Of a DNA stretch of 64,000 bases, positions 5,378 through 62,835 are shown piece after piece. Made by a program: the position numbers and the translations under genes. Under the pieces are notes generated by a model. That model was not told the DNA's origin, made no database searches, and worked only from the letters and a program-made list of their open reading frames with translations. The stretch lies in IMG/VR virus record IMGVR_UViG_2918982202_000003, one strand, 5' to 3'. The DNA is from a virus (lineage: Duplodnaviria; Caudoviricetes). Every line of letters starts with the position of its first letter. The first letter of the stretch is position 1.

Positions 5378-6047
5378 CGCTCGCGCCGAGACCGTTACAG
5401 GCCGCGCCTCCGTCATCGATGGCGATACGATCGAAATCCGGAACGAGCGGTTCCGCCTGCAGGGCGTCGATACGCCAGAGAGCGCTCAGATGTGCGGCGA
5501 CGCGGCCGGCAAGGACTATCCCTGCGGCCGGACGGCGGCGCTCGCCCTCTCCGACAAGATCGGTCAGAGCAACGTTGCCTGCGAGCCGATTGAGAAAGAC
5601 CGGTACGGGCGCACCGTTGCGGTCTGCCGCCTCGGCGCGCTCGACCTCAACGGCTGGCTGGTCGAGGAAGGGCTCGGCATGGCCTACCGGCGCTACTCCA
5701 CCGCCTATGTTGCGCAGGAGGATGCGGCCAAGCGGGCAAAGCGCGGGATTTGGGCCGGCCAGTTCACTCCGCCATGGGATTGGCGGAAGGGCGAGCGGGT
5801 GCAAGGTGTGGGCATGGCGGCGTCTGGCGGCCCGGACGGACCGATCCCCGCTCCGAAGACGCCGCCGGCCGCAGCGGTGAGTGCCTGCGCCATCAAGGGC
5901 AACATCTCGCGCAAGGGTGATCGGATTTATCACCTGCCCGGCACACGCGACTACGAGCGCACGCAGATCGACGAAGCCTCGGGCGAGCGCATGTTCTGCT
6001 CGGAGGATGAGGCGAAGGCGGCCGGTTGGCGGGCACCGCGAGGCTGA
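5316..6047 (+). CDS. Secreted thermonuclease (SNase family) with C-terminal Cys-containing domain
   Basis: Signal peptide, VIDGDT, RLQGVDTPE, DRYGRTVA motifs; C-terminal CAIKGNIS...IYHLPG...FCSEDEAKAAGWR. Confidence 0.88.
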   Translation: MSRVRLTAVAAIITVAVGAGSARAETVTGRASVIDGDTIEIRNERFRLQGVDTPESAQMCGDAAGKDYPCGRTAALALSDKIGQSNVACEPIEKDRYGRTVAVCRLGALDLNGWLVEEGLGMAYRRYSTAYVAQEDAAKRAKRGIWAGQFTPPWDWRKGERVQGVGMAASGGPDGPIPAPKTPPAAAVSACAIKGNISRKGDRIYHLPGTRDYERTQIDEASGERMFCSEDEAKAAGWRAPRG

Positions 6048-6122
6048 CGATCGCACGGCCGAGGTGCGGAAGCGGATGCTCGCAGCGGCGCGTGACAGGT
6101 CGAATTTGCTTAGGGGAGCACA

Positions 6123-6725
6123 ATGAACGCGAATGGGTATGAAGCTGCAGCGACCGCACTGAGACGGGCCGAAGAGGGCTTCGTGCGGCTCAAAGGCTCG
6201 AAGAGTATCGCCGAGCTAAAGGATGCCTGGTCGGACTTCTTAGTACAATACAACAGAATTTTTACAAAACTCGAACAGGCAAGCAAGACAGGTGGCAGCT
6301 CTCCTTGGTACGGGAGGATCAAGCATGAGCGTAAAAAATCAGTATGCCTAGCTTATCTTCTGCATGCTCGTAATATTGATGAGCACGGCATAGTGCCAAT
6401 CTATGAAGAAGCAAATGCTGATATGCGAATTGGTGCCCCTACAGACGACCTGAGCAACGTCAGCATCACTATTATCGGCGGAGTGATTACTTGGAGTTCT
6501 GGTGGGGACGGGAAGCCGCTGAGCGTAGTTCGGCGTCCAGCGCGGATTGAGCTTAGGTCGGTAATTGATAGAGGCGAGGAATATGCTGCGCCGATCAACC
6601 CCAACTCGAAGTTCAGAGATAATTATAGCCCGGTTGAGGCCGCTGAAATTGGGCTGAACTTTGCAAGGAAAGTCGTATCAGAGGCGAAGGAAAGGGTGGC
6701 GCCTGACGAGGCTCCAAGGCCCTGA
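6123..6725 (+). CDS. Accessory protein with a HEPN-like Rx4H motif
   Basis: 200 aa, visibly AT-richer than flanks, helical N-terminus, ARNIDEH motif. Confidence 0.6.
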   Translation: MNANGYEAAATALRRAEEGFVRLKGSKSIAELKDAWSDFLVQYNRIFTKLEQASKTGGSSPWYGRIKHERKKSVCLAYLLHARNIDEHGIVPIYEEANADMRIGAPTDDLSNVSITIIGGVITWSSGGDGKPLSVVRRPARIELRSVIDRGEEYAAPINPNSKFRDNYSPVEAAEIGLNFARKVVSEAKERVAPDEAPRP

Positions 6726-6819
6726 TCCGTTGAGCCAAGTTCGCCGTCCGCCATCGGTTGCTGGTTTAAGGCAGCGTCCGCTTGATCGGTCGCCCCATTT
6801 CCGGGCAGGTGTGCGTACG

Positions 6820-6849
6820 AAAAACCCCGCCGCGGCGAGCCGGGCAGGG
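6820..6849 (-). terminator. Putative intrinsic terminator
   Basis: AAAAACCCCGC...GCAGGG imperfect hairpin followed by a T-run on the minus strand; first 13 bp identical to 7371-7383. Confidence 0.45.
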
Positions 6850-6946
6850 CAAGGTGGGTATCGAGATGGAAGGACCCGCTGGAGGGCGGGCATGAGGCAG
6901 ACGGGCTGCGGTGGGCGGATAGTCCAGCTCAACGCTCCCAGGCCGA

Positions 6947-7195
6947 TCACTCCTTCATGATCGCCTCTACGTTCACCAGCGTGCCCCGCGCCGTCTCCGC
7001 GCGCTCGTGCGAGGCCGAGTCGAAGCCCCATGCTTCGTGCACCTCAATCCCTCCGTGGGTCGGATAAGCCGGATCGGCCGCGGGCCCTTCATCGCGGATG
7101 GTTTCGAGACCGCCGATCGCCTCGGCGAGGGCGCGCTCATATCGATCAGTCGGGAGATCGCTTTCCACGTTCGCTGTCGGATTGGTGCTGACCAT
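6947..7195 (-). CDS. Hypothetical protein
   Basis: 82-aa acidic ORF. Confidence 0.5.
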   Translation of the reverse strand: MVSTNPTANVESDLPTDRYERALAEAIGGLETIRDEGPAADPAYPTHGGIEVHEAWGFDSASHERAETARGTLVNVEAIMKE

Positions 7196-7372
7196 ACTGC
7201 GCCTCTACCGGCGGGGATTCGCCGAGGGGACGAGACTGCATAATCAATTATATGTTGCATAGCGTCTAACAGCACATCCTGTTTCGATGTGCCGGGACTG
7301 TCTGGCCGCCCGGCGCCTTTCGCCCCGGCGGCGGTCCGCCGATCCCAAGCGTCCCCGTGCGCCAAGCGCACG

Positions 7373-7402
7373 AAAAACCCCGCGCGGCGGGTGCCGGCGG
7401 GG
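7373..7402 (-). terminator. Intrinsic terminator after the membrane-protein pair
   Basis: CCCCGC(7378-83)/GCGGGG(7397-402) stem followed by TTTTT on the minus strand. Confidence 0.6.
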
Positions 7403-7426
7403 CTGATATGGGCGCCGAATTTGGGG

Positions 7427-7957
7427 CTATGCGGCTACGAGATCAGGAGGCAACGAATGGTCTGAGCGAGTGACTTCTCGGGCTGCCACCGATGCAAGAT
7501 CCGTGACCTGAGCCTGCCCTTTGTAGAGGCGGGCCATCGCACCGCGCGCACGTTCGCCAGACCGTAAATCTGCGTAGCTGGTGGCCATTATGGCCGCGAA
7601 CAACGTCTCTGAGACCAGTTGGGCCAGAGCGTCGTCGCCCTCGTAGAACGGCGTCCCATCGGAGTTCAGCGCCGTTGATTGAGATGGGCGGTCAGGCGAG
7701 GTGAAGACCTTGTAGAGCAGCAGCGTGGAGCTTCGATCAAGCATGGCCGCATTGAGCCCGGCCAAGGTCTCCAAGAACGACTGAGGCACGCGATCATCGT
7801 CCATCAGAAGGCGCGAGCCCCGAGCGAAGCGCCCGACCCAATGCTCTTGCTGGCGAAGTCGATCGAGGTCCGCACACGCGAACGCGTGCCACTTGCCAAC
7901 GGCAAGAGCCGCGGCGGCGGCTGTGACAATAATCAAGAGTGCGAGTTGCAAGCTCAT
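7427..7957 (-). CDS. Membrane-anchored hypothetical protein
   Basis: N-terminal hydrophobic helix LALLIIVTAAAAALAV; coupled to the upstream gene by ATGA overlap. Confidence 0.65.
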   Translation of the reverse strand: MSLQLALLIIVTAAAAALAVGKWHAFACADLDRLRQQEHWVGRFARGSRLLMDDDRVPQSFLETLAGLNAAMLDRSSTLLLYKVFTSPDRPSQSTALNSDGTPFYEGDDALAQLVSETLFAAIMATSYADLRSGERARGAMARLYKGQAQVTDLASVAAREVTRSDHSLPPDLVAA

Positions 7958-59123: not shown

Positions 59124-59776
59124 AGCCTGCCGCCACCCCAGAGGCGCTGGAACAGGCGCCCTACGTCCTGCTGAAGCGTGGGCTATTCGAGCGGCCAGAT
59201 CACCACGGCTACACCGGGGTTCTCCGCCATGCCGGCCGGTTCTCCTACAAGGAAGCGTCCGCCTACTCGGGCCACGGCGATGGCGTCACGATGATGCCGG
59301 CAAGTGAGGCCCCCGATTACTCGCCCGCCTGCTGGCATGAAACACAGGTCGAGGATCTACTCGACCTCTTGCGCATCGAGCGTGAAGCCAAGGACTCTGC
59401 CCTCGCCGACCTTCAGCGGGTCGAGGCCGAGAGGGACGAGGCGGACCGGCGCGCAGGTGCCGCCGAGCGTGAAGCCGAGAGCGACCGCGAAGGCACCCGC
59501 AAGCGAAACTCCTGGCTGCATCAGGCGAAGTTGCAGGCCGGCTACAGCACTGGCGTCAGCTTCGACAAGGTGTGGGCCGAGACACTTGAGAAGGCCGGCC
59601 GCGCAGACACCGCCACCGCCGAGGCCGCCAGCCTCCGGGCCGAGGTGGAGGCGAAGGACAAGGCGCTGAAGGAGATTGTGGGAGCGCAGCACCGGTCTTC
59701 GTCAGACTCGGAGGCTGTTGTGCGGATGGTCCGCATCGCCCGAGCCGCCCGCGCGGCCACGGCGGGGGAGGGGTAG
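59120..59776 (+). CDS. Hypothetical protein with C-terminal coiled coil
   Basis: Coupled cassette; HGYT...AGRF motif. Confidence 0.6.
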   Translation: MKPAATPEALEQAPYVLLKRGLFERPDHHGYTGVLRHAGRFSYKEASAYSGHGDGVTMMPASEAPDYSPACWHETQVEDLLDLLRIEREAKDSALADLQRVEAERDEADRRAGAAEREAESDREGTRKRNSWLHQAKLQAGYSTGVSFDKVWAETLEKAGRADTATAEAASLRAEVEAKDKALKEIVGAQHRSSSDSEAVVRMVRIARAARAATAGEG

Positions 59777-60075
59777 ATGGACCTCCTGTTTGGCCTTCGC
59801 CTGCATTGGGGCGATCCGAACCGCCCGACCGAAATCCGCGCTTGGACGACAGCGTTCAGTCGGAAGGATAGTCCTTGGCGACACGACTACATCACGCATC
59901 AGGTGTGCCGCTGGTACGGGCTCAGCCGTAAGCGCGACTGGTTCTGTGGCTTCTGCCGGCTCGGCAAGACCGAAATGTACAGCAGCCCGGAGAAGCCTCG
60001 CGTCGGCTGGCCGAGCGAGATGAGCGACCGCCCGTCCGACATTACGATGGGCGATGAGGCCACGGCGGGGGAGGG
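59755..60075 (+). repeat. 18-bp direct repeat GGCCACGGCGGGGGAGGG at consecutive gene ends
   Basis: Exact copies at 59755-59772 and 60058-60075. Confidence 0.85.
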
Positions 60076-60091
60076 TCGCAGCGATGGGTGA
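59777..60091 (+). CDS. Hypothetical protein
   Basis: Cassette flanked by the 18-bp repeat. Confidence 0.55.
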   Translation: MDLLFGLRLHWGDPNRPTEIRAWTTAFSRKDSPWRHDYITHQVCRWYGLSRKRDWFCGFCRLGKTEMYSSPEKPRVGWPSEMSDRPSDITMGDEATAGEGRSDG

Positions 60092-60416
60092 GGCACACGA
60101 AATCACCGACGAACTGCGCTTGATAGCCGCCATTGGCCGAGTCTCGCATCGGCAAATCATGGCTCGCGCCCGCGACCTTGCGGCCCCCTCCTATCGTGGT
60201 GATCCGAACTGGAGCTTCGCGATGCATCTATTCGGGCTCAGCGCCTTCCACTCGAAGTTCATTTGCGAGCGCATGGGCATCGATCCTGAAGGCTACGAGG
60301 TGCTGCCGCATCCGGAAAGCCTCTACCGCGACCCCGAGCCAGCATCCACCCTCCTCGCCCAGGCCGAAGCCCCTTCCACCAGCGCAGGTCGTCAGGAGGG
60401 CGAACATCATGGCTGA
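60084..60416 (+). CDS. Hypothetical protein
   Basis: Coupled cassette. Confidence 0.55.
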   Translation: MGEAHEITDELRLIAAIGRVSHRQIMARARDLAAPSYRGDPNWSFAMHLFGLSAFHSKFICERMGIDPEGYEVLPHPESLYRDPEPASTLLAQAEAPSTSAGRQEGEHHG

Positions 60417-60638
60417 TATCCCTGCTCAGATTGCGCGCCTTGAAGGCTTCACAGCCGAACAGCGAACGGCGCCCCACGGTTCGGCCCGGATGTACGCGGC
60501 CATGATGACCGCAGGGGCAGCAGACGGCTACCGTCTCGCTCTAGCCGACGTGGCCGAATGGCTCCGCAAGCGCGGCAACCACGGGGTTGCGGCAGACCTC
60601 GAAAGGCTCGGGCGGACCACCCCTTCCACCAGCGCAGG
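60370..60638 (+). repeat. 19-bp direct repeat CCCCTTCCACCAGCGCAGG at consecutive gene ends
   Basis: Exact copies at 60370-60388 and 60620-60638. Confidence 0.85.
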
Positions 60639-60657
60639 AGGGAAGACCGATGCGTAA
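60409..60657 (+). CDS. Hypothetical protein
   Basis: Cassette flanked by the 19-bp repeat. Confidence 0.55.
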   Translation: MADIPAQIARLEGFTAEQRTAPHGSARMYAAMMTAGAADGYRLALADVAEWLRKRGNHGVAADLERLGRTTPSTSAGGKTDA

Positions 60658-61741
60658 CGTGAAGTCAGGGGGCACTGATCGGCCGAACAATGCGCTGGTG
60701 CCAACCATCACAGTAAAGCTGCGCCTATGTGACAAGCACGCAGGCGGCTTAAATAGGCAGGCAAGATCTGTAAATTATGTTTGGAACTACTGCAACGAAA
60801 CGCAGAAAAAGGCAGCTCAAGCCAAGCGTAAATGGCTATTCGCGCAGGATTTTATGAAGTTGACTGCTGGGTCAGGCGGGGATCTCGGTCTCCACGCCCA
60901 TACAGTTCAGCGCGTTTGCCGCGAATACGACATCTCTCGCAAGAGAGATAGCAAGGCTTGGCTTCGCTGGAGGTCGAGAAAATCTCTTGGTTGGGTTCCG
61001 TTTAACACTGGGCATGTAAAATTTGATGGGTCTCGCTTTGTGTTCAATGGCGTTCACTACGAGCCGATGCATCTGCGCGAGCATTTGACGCCGGGCATGC
61101 GGTTTGGCGCTGGCAGCTTCAATTCCGATGCGAAAGGCCGCTGGTACATCAACGTTCCTGTCGCGGTGCCGTGTGCAGAGCCGAGGCCAGAGAATGCGGT
61201 CGGTATCGACCTGGGCCTGAAGACGCTCGCGACGCTATCTACCAGCGCGAAGATTGAGATGCCGCGCTTCTACCGCGAGAGCGAGAAGGCGTTGGCGACG
61301 TCGCAGCGCGCGAAGAAAACCAAGCGGACCAAGGCGATCCATGCCAAGGCGCGGAACCGCCGCAAAGACTTCCTGCACAAGGCGTCTCTCGCTTTGGTGC
61401 AAGAATACGGGACGATCATCGTTGGCGATGTGAGCCCGTCAAAGCTAGCCAAGACCACTATGGCGAAGTCGATCTACGACGCCGGGTGGGCAGGCTTCCG
61501 GCACATGCTCTCGTACAAGGCCATTAGGCATGGCGGGCGCTACGTCGAAGTCTCTGAGGCTTATAGTACCCGAACCTGTTCTGCATGCGGAAGCATCGGC
61601 GGCCCGACAGGGCTGAAAGGTCTCGGAATAAGAGAATGGCAATGCCTCGATTGCGGCTCGGTTCATGACCGGGACGAAAACTCAGCGCAAGTCATTCTCG
61701 GTATTGGGCTGAATACCCTTGCTGAAGGAGTCCAGAAATGA
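60650..61741 (+). CDS. tnpB: TnpB (IS200/IS605 OrfB) nuclease with rearranged RuvC-II site
   Basis: VKLRL...VWNY; GIDLG (RuvC-I); IIVGDVS (canonical E replaced by G); alternative E in VSEAYS; CSAC...CLDC; HDRDEN (RuvC-III). Confidence 0.9.
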   Translation: MRNVKSGGTDRPNNALVPTITVKLRLCDKHAGGLNRQARSVNYVWNYCNETQKKAAQAKRKWLFAQDFMKLTAGSGGDLGLHAHTVQRVCREYDISRKRDSKAWLRWRSRKSLGWVPFNTGHVKFDGSRFVFNGVHYEPMHLREHLTPGMRFGAGSFNSDAKGRWYINVPVAVPCAEPRPENAVGIDLGLKTLATLSTSAKIEMPRFYRESEKALATSQRAKKTKRTKAIHAKARNRRKDFLHKASLALVQEYGTIIVGDVSPSKLAKTTMAKSIYDAGWAGFRHMLSYKAIRHGGRYVEVSEAYSTRTCSACGSIGGPTGLKGLGIREWQCLDCGSVHDRDENSAQVILGIGLNTLAEGVQK

Positions 61742-62127
61742 GGGGCGCTATGGATAAAACCGTGTCCCGCAAATCTGGGAGCAGCCACGTGAAGAGCCTT
61801 GCCGCGGAGATTGAGGCGGACACGACCGCGCTTCGCCTCGCCGTCCACGCCTGGATCAGAGAGGACGCCCCGCTCGCCGCAAAGATGAACCTGCTACCAA
61901 AGCACGTTGATGCGCTGATGGCCCGCCTCGCCGCCGAGATCGCCGCCAACCAGAGCCGTGCCTTTGAGGACGGGGCGCGGTGGATGCGAGGGGTCGCGGC
62001 TCAGCGCGTAGTCCGGTCCTTTCGAGGCGACGCACCAACCGATGCCGAGCGGTACACGCTGAACGAGGCTGTCCGGTGCGTGCGGCTCCTCCCCCTCCAG
62101 CCCGAAGGGGAGCGGAGCGATGGGTAG
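61738..62127 (+). CDS. Hypothetical protein
   Basis: ATGA overlap with the tnpB stop. Confidence 0.55.
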   Translation: MRGAMDKTVSRKSGSSHVKSLAAEIEADTTALRLAVHAWIREDAPLAAKMNLLPKHVDALMARLAAEIAANQSRAFEDGARWMRGVAAQRVVRSFRGDAPTDAERYTLNEAVRCVRLLPLQPEGERSDG

Positions 62128-62362
62128 ACTCTCACCCTCCCGACTGCGTGTCCTGCGCACGCTCGCCGACTACCCGCAGGGCGGTTTGCTGACGCGCCAA
62201 CTCGCCGAGAAAATCGGCCTGACGACCGCCAGCGCCCGCCGCCTATGCCAAGCCATGCGGTTCTTCGGCCTCGTGCTGCGGTACGAGACCAACGATCAAC
62301 GCTGGTGGATCACCGACGCCGGCCGCGCCGCCCTCGCCGAACAGGAGAAGGGCGATGCGTAG
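62120..62362 (+). CDS. Winged-helix DNA-binding protein
   Basis: LTRQLAEKIGLTTASARRLC...WWITDAGRAAL. Confidence 0.7.
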   Translation: MGRLSPSRLRVLRTLADYPQGGLLTRQLAEKIGLTTASARRLCQAMRFFGLVLRYETNDQRWWITDAGRAALAEQEKGDA

Positions 62363-62537
62363 CACAATCGCGCTTTTCATCGTCACGTGGGGGCTGATCG
62401 AACTCGGTCGGCTCATCAGCGAGGGCTTCAGTTGGGGCTTTGCGGCAGGCTGTGCCTACGCCAGCCTCATCGCCTTCGTGTCCGTCCGCCGCCTCGCCCT
62501 CGCCAACTCGACAGAAGGGAGAACGGATCGTGGGTAG
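62355..62537 (+). CDS. Small membrane protein
   Basis: Two hydrophobic helices. Confidence 0.5.
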   Translation: MRSTIALFIVTWGLIELGRLISEGFSWGFAAGCAYASLIAFVSVRRLALANSTEGRTDRG

Positions 62538-62835
62538 CGTTCGCACCTCGGCTCCGGCCCAGGAGCCATCCTGCCTGTATCCCGACGAGGCCGAACTAGC
62601 GCGAGTCGTGCTCGGCCCTAAGCGGGCAAAGGCGTGGGGCGGTCTCGCCGCCGTCCTCGAGCGCAGCGGCCTCCCGAGGGTCGATCCGATGATGGGCGGT
62701 CGCTACTGGCCCGCCGTCCGAGAATTTCTGGACCGCTACCACCATACCGGCGACCATGCCTCCACCCGGCAGCAGGGCCGGAGGGAGGAGGGTGGCCATG
62801 CCAGCGGAGCACGAGTTGCACGCGCCCGGTCTTAA
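62530..62835 (+). CDS. Excisionase-like winged-helix protein
   Basis: LERSGLPRVDPMMGGRYWPAVREFLD; overlaps the integrase start. Confidence 0.65.
   Translation: MGSVRTSAPAQEPSCLYPDEAELARVVLGPKRAKAWGGLAAVLERSGLPRVDPMMGGRYWPAVREFLDRYHHTGDHASTRQQGRREEGGHASGARVARARS

Follow-up and report, generated by a model that had tools for sequence, protein, structure and literature searches.

A TnpB–omegaRNA cassette in the first codons of a prophage early gene, a candidate for transposase-independent homing or exclusion among sibling phages

The window studied here is a 64,000-nucleotide stretch of a tailed-phage genome (Duplodnaviria; Caudoviricetes; IMG/VR record IMGVR_UViG_2918982202_000003) that proved to be a prophage, and our subject is a tnpB gene lying in its early operon. 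TnpB is the ancestor of Cas12. On balance, comparison with related loci leads us to favor the view that this gene and its adjoining omegaRNA form a transposase-independent cassette, fixed among the opening codons of a conserved early gene of the prophage, and that the cassette would serve homing or exclusion among sibling phages. The accepted role of TnpB is to restore its transposon after excision by the transposase TnpA; copies of the window type cannot be excised, yet selection appears to maintain their nuclease and guide RNA. If the favored view is right, they would be evidence from the field that gene-drive-like spread, or the exclusion of one phage by another, can be driven by TnpB alone, a notion so far raised mainly in theory (PMC13565253). 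The original prediction, made from the letters of this DNA, had described an immobilized TnpB domesticated by the phage. Its immobility was borne out; domestication is not established, and the distribution of the cassette instead fits a selfish homing element: close relatives lie at varied sites, a near-identical copy sits in another background and sister phages are cassette-free.

The host genome of the prophage is 5.26 Mb and 100% complete. Virion genes occupy the minus strand of the window, whereas the early operon runs on the plus strand from about 50.5 kb to the integrase at 62756 and encodes a YqaJ/RecE-like exonuclease and RecT, a setting that had been correctly recognized. The tnpB product, 363 amino acids (aa) as first proposed, matches Pfam OrfB_IS605 (PF01385, 3e-17) and the zinc-ribbon family Cas12f1-like_TNB (PF07282, 3e-20), both past their cut-offs. 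The gene and its key residues are placed as follows.

60650–61741, plus strand: tnpB open reading frame (ORF), from the ATG at 60650 to the TGA at 61741, 363 aa, inside the early operon
60665–61788, plus strand: element-derived DNA, about 1.12 kb, delimited by composition, empty-site comparison and blastn of segments
61208–61210, plus strand: RuvC-I D187, invariant in 120 homologs
61424–61426, plus strand: Gly259 at the canonical RuvC-II position, aligned with ISDra2 TnpB (8bf8/8exa)
61556–61558, plus strand: relocated Glu303, 44 residues after Gly259
61577–61654, plus strand: zinc finger C310–C335, both CxxC pairs present
61673–61675, plus strand: RuvC-III D342, invariant in 120 homologs

The rearranged RuvC site that had drawn attention to this protein is real: Gly259 pairs with Glu278 of ISDra2 TnpB in the alignment, and D187, G259, E303, D342 and the four zinc-finger cysteines are invariant in the 120 best homologs (120/120). 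Since it also matches published groups, the site is neither new nor peculiar to the window copy, and its supposed special status did not hold. In rearranged TnpBs the Glu is replaced by Gly and compensated by another Glu some 45 residues later; RIIr-5, the largest branch (PMC10691335), is the TnpB2 of Jiang et al. TvTnpB, a member with the rearranged site, is an active DNA nuclease with the transposon-adjacent motif (TAM) NTGAC (PMC10530073). The best explanation of the window protein is that it belongs to this RIIr-5/TnpB2 branch and derives from a tnpB-only element of IS200/IS605 type. The branch is provisionally assigned by residues, Gly at the canonical RuvC-II position with the alternative Glu, and NTGAC of TvTnpB agrees with the TGAC seen here; TvTnpB differs in residing in an entire IS605, TnpA and the two ends included. 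The catalytic site looks intact, which would make the window TnpB a compact, probably active nuclease. The nuclease-dead TnpB repressors known as TldR (PMC10705468) are likewise immobilized TnpBs that retain a guide RNA, but D187, E303 and D342 are all present in the window protein, and with its catalytic residues intact a TldR-like repressor role is not indicated.

The base composition of the gene points to a composite origin. GC content is 51–62% across about 60650–61790, against 65–70% in the flanking prophage. The AT-richer 5' half noted in the original prediction was confirmed (GC 51–56% over 60650–61050, with no bias in GC at third codon positions, GC3); further on, GC3 reaches 0.7–0.93. 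By blastn, tnpB falls into a low-GC segment at 60704–61050 with at most 70% identity to any relative found, a second at 61051–61370 whose nearest relative is locus L035 (82%), and a third at 61371–61788 closest to locus L140 (84%). This three-part mosaic, which would account for the AT-rich 5' part, indicates recombination between family members.

Downstream of tnpB, the original prediction had seen neither a non-coding flank nor a right end, and had started the next gene at the ATG that overlaps the tnpB stop (ATGA, 61738–61741). The overlap exists, but the ATG lies inside a right end. When right-end DNA was aligned with relatives drawn from genomes, viral contigs and metagenomes, conservation ran 47 nucleotides (nt) past the stop and ended at GGGGAGC(A/T)G(T/C)CAC, with the flanks all different beyond it.

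61642–61788, plus strand: predicted omegaRNA scaffold, overlapping the tnpB 3' end and stopping at the right-end terminus
61742–61788, plus strand: right end past the stop codon, 47 nt belonging to the element and conserved across about 45 relatives, with a decayed hairpin
61777–61788, plus strand: terminal motif GGGAGCAGCCAC, identical in loci L038, L041 and L086
61789–61808, plus strand: predicted guide/target GTGAAGAGCCTTGCCGCGGA, its first 6 nt being the right copy of GTGAAG

The search for an omegaRNA by covariance model, suggested along with the original prediction, located a scaffold. Model R1, built from relatives only, with the window and its sister L140 left out, matches 61642–61788 over its full length (1–141; 99.7 bits, E 1e-26). 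The consensus fold of 35 sequences has clear covariation, including a 6-bp hairpin with 0 broken pairs and 11–20 double-sided changes per pair, which the window keeps as GGTATT/AATACC at 61700–61717. A scan of 60000–62600 against Rfam, at E up to 10, gave no match; the curated families miss this omegaRNA. R1 found no further omegaRNA-like locus in the whole genome, and borrowing of a host omegaRNA was rejected, as the genome has no other tnpB and no other model match. The altered, trans-borrowed or guide-free modes of action once envisaged are unnecessary, given a canonical cis omegaRNA scaffold, its terminus and a defined guide from 61789.

This arrangement is that of ISDra2, whose scaffold also overlaps the 3' end of the gene and stops at the element terminus, the flank directly 3' of the right end supplying the guide (PMC8612924). 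ISDra2 TnpB (PDB 8bf8/8exa/8h1j) has the same domain order, and the RuvC–zinc finger half aligns at E 2e-26 over residues 170–348. The window copy differs in having Gly for the RuvC-II Glu, with a Glu 44 residues on, in its TAM, inferred as TGAC in place of TTGAT, and in having neither tnpA, left end nor intact TnpA hairpins. TGAC is found at the junctions and empty sites of related loci.

We conclude that the window copy cannot transpose through TnpA, because its left end is absent, its right-end hairpin has decayed, the genome is without TnpA and the gene is single-copy. Full-length relatives (L004, L034, L035 and L037) have a conserved left end of about 210 nt with the hairpin CGGCCTTCAGGCCG, which mirrors the right-end CCCCGG-CTTCAG-CCGGGG. 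The window has no counterpart of this left end, phage sequence continuing to 60664. Its right-end subterminal hairpin, correctly judged not to be intact, has a folding energy of −2.1 kcal/mol (z 0.17), which shuffled sequence also attains; the hairpins of full-length relatives reach −7.3 to −9.6 kcal/mol. The reported lack of tnpA extends to the complete genome, in which the Y1 transposase (TnpA, PF01797) is absent, control genomes having given matches; DNA and protein searches alike returned a single tnpB, with no near-identical copy elsewhere in that genome. Membership of the IS607 type, raised by the rearranged site, was dropped on the evidence of the full-length relatives, whose matching hairpins are of IS605 type and one of which neighbors a Y1 gene. 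The tnpB-only IS1341 group is closer, with a single tnpB and right end, and in full-length relatives matching hairpins with a CTTCAG loop; the window copy departs from it by lacking a left end, by its in-frame fusion to the host start codon and by a short flanking target duplication. Separately, the L035 contig carries at 5980–7503 a complete IS605 (Y1 transposase and a different tnpB) on the opposite strand, about 0.7 kb downstream, a possible trans source of TnpA for full-length elements.

The position of the insert was established from cassette-free relatives. A direct search with flank DNA covered 60 relatives and gave no exact empty site and a single mosaic match (G020); looking up the upstream-gene protein then gave empty sites, located in Methylorubrum rhodesianum prophages and metagenome contigs. 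The features of the insertion site are listed below, X1 being a contig from a DNA run.

60409–60657, plus strand: upstream phage gene, 82 aa, from the ORF list; homologs P0122 and P0123 in cassette-free L053 and L055–L057
60620–60638, plus strand: 19-nt gene-end motif CCCCTTCCACCAGCGCAGG; its other copy is at about 60351–60369
60637–60664, plus strand: phage translation start captured by TnpB, with GGAGG at 60637–60641, an 8-nt spacer and ATG CGT AAC GTG AAG at 60650–60664
60655–60658, plus strand: TAM-like TAAC at the left junction; TGAC in X1 (G at 60656)
60659–60664, plus strand: left copy of GTGAAG, from the repeat test
61789–62127, plus strand: displaced phage gene, 112 aa from the GTG at 61789 (KSLAAEIEA...); homologs in L021, L053 and L055

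In cassette-free relatives the homologs of the upstream gene (84 aa) directly precede a 140-aa gene beginning M-A-(S/P)-D-K-S-L-A-A-E-I-E-A, with no tnpB, and homologs of the displaced gene begin M(A/S)xDKSLAAEIEA in L021, L053 and L055. Their junction reads AGGAGG, 8–9 nt, ATG GCG AGT GAC AAG AGC CTC, so that TGAC stands immediately before AAGAGCC. The window reads AGGAGGG, 7 nt, ATG CGT AAC GTG AAG and then element sequence on the left, and on the right, past the right end, GTG AAG AGC CTT GCC GCG GAG. From this comparison the insert (about 60665–61788) is seen to interrupt the start of the phage gene, MRNVKSLAAEIEA, within codons 3–5 (MRNVK / SLAAEIEA); the original start would read ATG CGT (G/A)AC GTG AAG / AGC CTT. 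GTGAAG (ACGTGAAG counting the shared AC) is present at both insert junctions.

Judging from these junctions, TnpB uses the ribosome site and ATG of the phage gene, with five phage codons fused to it in frame, and the coupling to the early operon first proposed is thereby upheld. The tnpB ATG overlaps the stop of the 82-aa gene, also as described (ATGCGTAA, TAA 60655–60657). The displaced gene resumes at the GTG at 61789, 7 nt past the GGAG of the right-end terminus, and an independent gene call (L141) agrees; the in-frame ATG at 61738 could give it a 17-aa leader. Of 27 related loci in which a long ORF follows, L035 (position 5223), L063 and L088 among them, 17 have it in the frame that an ATG near the tnpB stop opens and that runs out through the right end; in L088 the terminus CAT and a flanking G together make an ATG. 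The right end may lend the interrupted gene a translation start that travels with the element.

The same layout recurs in four other relatives without a left end (L038, L040, L067 and L124). At their left junction a host ATG is followed by a TGAC/CGAC-type motif, an 8–11 nt repeat of the right-flank target and element-internal sequence. The repeat reaches 12–13 nt counting the shared AC in L038, L067 and L124, a length equalled by no background 22-mer in 200 trials; 7-nt junction repeats in L004, L065, L079, L104 and L108 were at chance level and were not counted. All four right ends finish GCCA(C/T), with hairpins decayed or deleted, and the host ATG is fused in frame to TnpB in L040 and L124 as well. 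IS200/IS605 transposition produces no target duplication. We tentatively propose, with clearly less confidence than we give to the favored reading, a TnpA-free TnpB/omegaRNA sub-lineage that would spread from one phage genome to another by RNA-guided cutting and repair alone, landing after start codons beside a TGAC TAM, taking the host translation start and returning a ribosome site and start codon from its right end, so that the interrupted gene would stay expressed; the duplication, variable in length at 6–11 nt, would be the footprint of non-transpositional insertion. In-frame start-codon capture and short target duplications offer testable predictions on how such insertion could occur without killing the phage.

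The distribution of relatives is consistent with a mobile rather than a fixed gene. The nearest proteins (73–76% identity) come from other phages at unrelated positions (in the early region, after baseplate genes, or between portal and terminase), family members occupy many unrelated sites, most related prophages are without the cassette, and no close copy was found in 145 other genomes of the genus. On the metagenome contig L140 a sister cassette occupies the identical gene start (TGAC / element / AAGAGCC; ...GCCAC / AAGAGCC) and shares with the window the terminus, the decayed hairpin and the in-frame read-through. Its guide region is identical at 21/21 nt to the cassette-free L053 allele (AAGAGCCTCGCCGCCGAGATC), with TGAC in front, which by sequence is the configuration required of a homing guide. 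X1 carries 60620–61819 at 99.1% identity; the match takes in about 30 nt to either side of the cassette, and beyond it both flanks of X1 differ; on the left it has a homolog of the 165-aa gene of L140 and not the 82-aa gene, and it shows TGAC where the window shows TAAC.

These comparisons, although limited, point to purifying selection on tnpB. Between window and X1 the ORF has 10 differences, 6 synonymous and 4 non-synonymous. Against L140 the gene is close from about codon 240 on (proportion of synonymous differences, pS, 0.26–0.33) and saturated before, and the ratio of non-synonymous to synonymous substitution rates (dN/dS) is 0.13–0.28 over codons 241–360. Selection and synteny had both been proposed for checking at the outset; constraint is apparent, and close homologs lie at varied positions.

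Under the favored reading, a homing or exclusion cassette, TnpB would be made from the operon transcript and would mature an omegaRNA from the 3' region of its own message, with the roughly 16–20 nt past 61788 as guide. When a sibling phage co-infects or superinfects, the complex would cut its cassette-free allele of the same gene (TGAC followed by GTGAAGAGCC...). Repair of the break from the cassette-bearing genome, plausibly through the phage YqaJ/RecT, would copy the cassette with short flanks, amounting to non-restorative homing, and failure of repair would eliminate the rival phage, amounting to exclusion. The GTGAAG duplication would most simply be a repair scar: copying from the right flank would halt before the left end and be joined to the TAM-side break end, which would still hold the first target bases.

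Free-standing phage homing endonuclease genes such as T4 SegF (PMC13565253) offer a precedent, as nuclease genes between conserved phage genes that are present in some siblings only, with short co-transferred flanks and the cassette-free allele as predicted target. The window cassette would differ in recognizing its target through an RNA guide and TAM and not through protein, and in that the insertion itself separates self from non-self. TnpA-independent, homing-like spread of TnpB is discussed as a concept in a 2026 review (PMC13565253); the literature searched yielded no documented natural phage example.

Several observations weigh against this reading. The left junction of the window has TAAC in place of TGAC. 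A search of 146 genomes of the genus for a natural target of the window guide (TRAC followed by GTGAAGAGCC...) found none, and the common cassette-free alleles are without the GTG codon, which puts the guide out of register with them. The window, L140 and L067 share the internal start (T/A)CAGG..CAC, a poor fit to random truncation, and the duplication mechanism, repair after a TnpB cut, is a best guess. The selection signal draws on 10 differences and on a stretch in which the RNA is encoded as well. Ordinary recombination between phages at the repeated 19-nt motif could account for the X1 copy, with no cutting.

In the guide-match search within the genome, the self match alone has proper context. 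A near-match with 2 mismatches (G000:C1:3671825-3671844, L059) lies inside a methyl-accepting chemotaxis protein gene and encodes VKSLAA, the same peptide as the guide region; it is preceded by CGAG and not by a TGAC-type motif, and with no TAM we judged it probably a chance match. No stretch among the viral contigs searched matched a pattern of the right end followed directly by AAGAGCCT.

Three other explanations were ranked by likelihood, a decaying relic ahead of true domestication and both ahead of a mobilizable insertion sequence (IS). The relic, which we regard as unlikely but the strongest of the three, would be an ordinary IS1341-type insertion that lost its left end through a deletion and is decaying, its open frame and RNA surviving through recency. 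The missing left end, decayed right-end hairpin, absent TnpA, single copy, failure to find a target for the window guide in the genomes searched and TAAC where TGAC is expected are all what an inert remnant would show. Decay is harder to reconcile with an intact ORF in which every catalytic and zinc residue is kept, with the synonymous excess against both X1 and L140, and with covarying RNA helices kept while the adjacent TnpA hairpin decayed; nor does it predict a captured start codon precisely in frame, or the same arrangement in L140 after substantial divergence.

Less likely again is domestication in the strict sense, with the nuclease kept for the benefit of phage or host, through exclusion of superinfecting siblings or stimulation of RecT recombination, and any spread of the cassette incidental. 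Its fixed position at one gene start in three backgrounds (window, X1 and L140), the building of tnpB into operon translation and the co-resident YqaJ/RecT speak for it, as does the known part of homing endonucleases in phage competition (PMC11620839). Most related prophages, however, do without the cassette, and family members sit at many unrelated sites; sequence data cannot separate exclusion from homing, because both predict identical features. That the cassette is an ordinary mobile IS, mobilizable by TnpA in trans, is very improbable: the right-end terminus is conserved, a TGAC-type motif stands at the left junction and full-ended relatives exist, one beside a Y1 transposase gene, but a left-end hairpin is missing, shuffled sequence folds as well as the right-end hairpin, the genome holds a single copy and no Y1 TnpA, and the 6–8 nt flanking duplication is not a product of IS200/IS605 transposition.

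Further observations concern the surrounding operon. The 19-nt direct repeat ends two successive small genes (...PSTSAG...), just ahead of the next ribosome site; it may be a module-boundary recombination site, because the block shared with X1 starts exactly at its second copy (at the joint, 19 letters fit both places). A scan for promoters and terminators gave no plus-strand site within 59700–62800, counts being at chance level. Among the RNA runs compared with the window, one showed the empty site of a related strain and the others gave nothing usable. In that run, X8, reads join 59987–60160 to 61901–62074 across 40 nt including ATGGCCCCTGACAAGA, and therefore a cassette-free operon, also without the 82-aa gene, is transcribed in the related strain.

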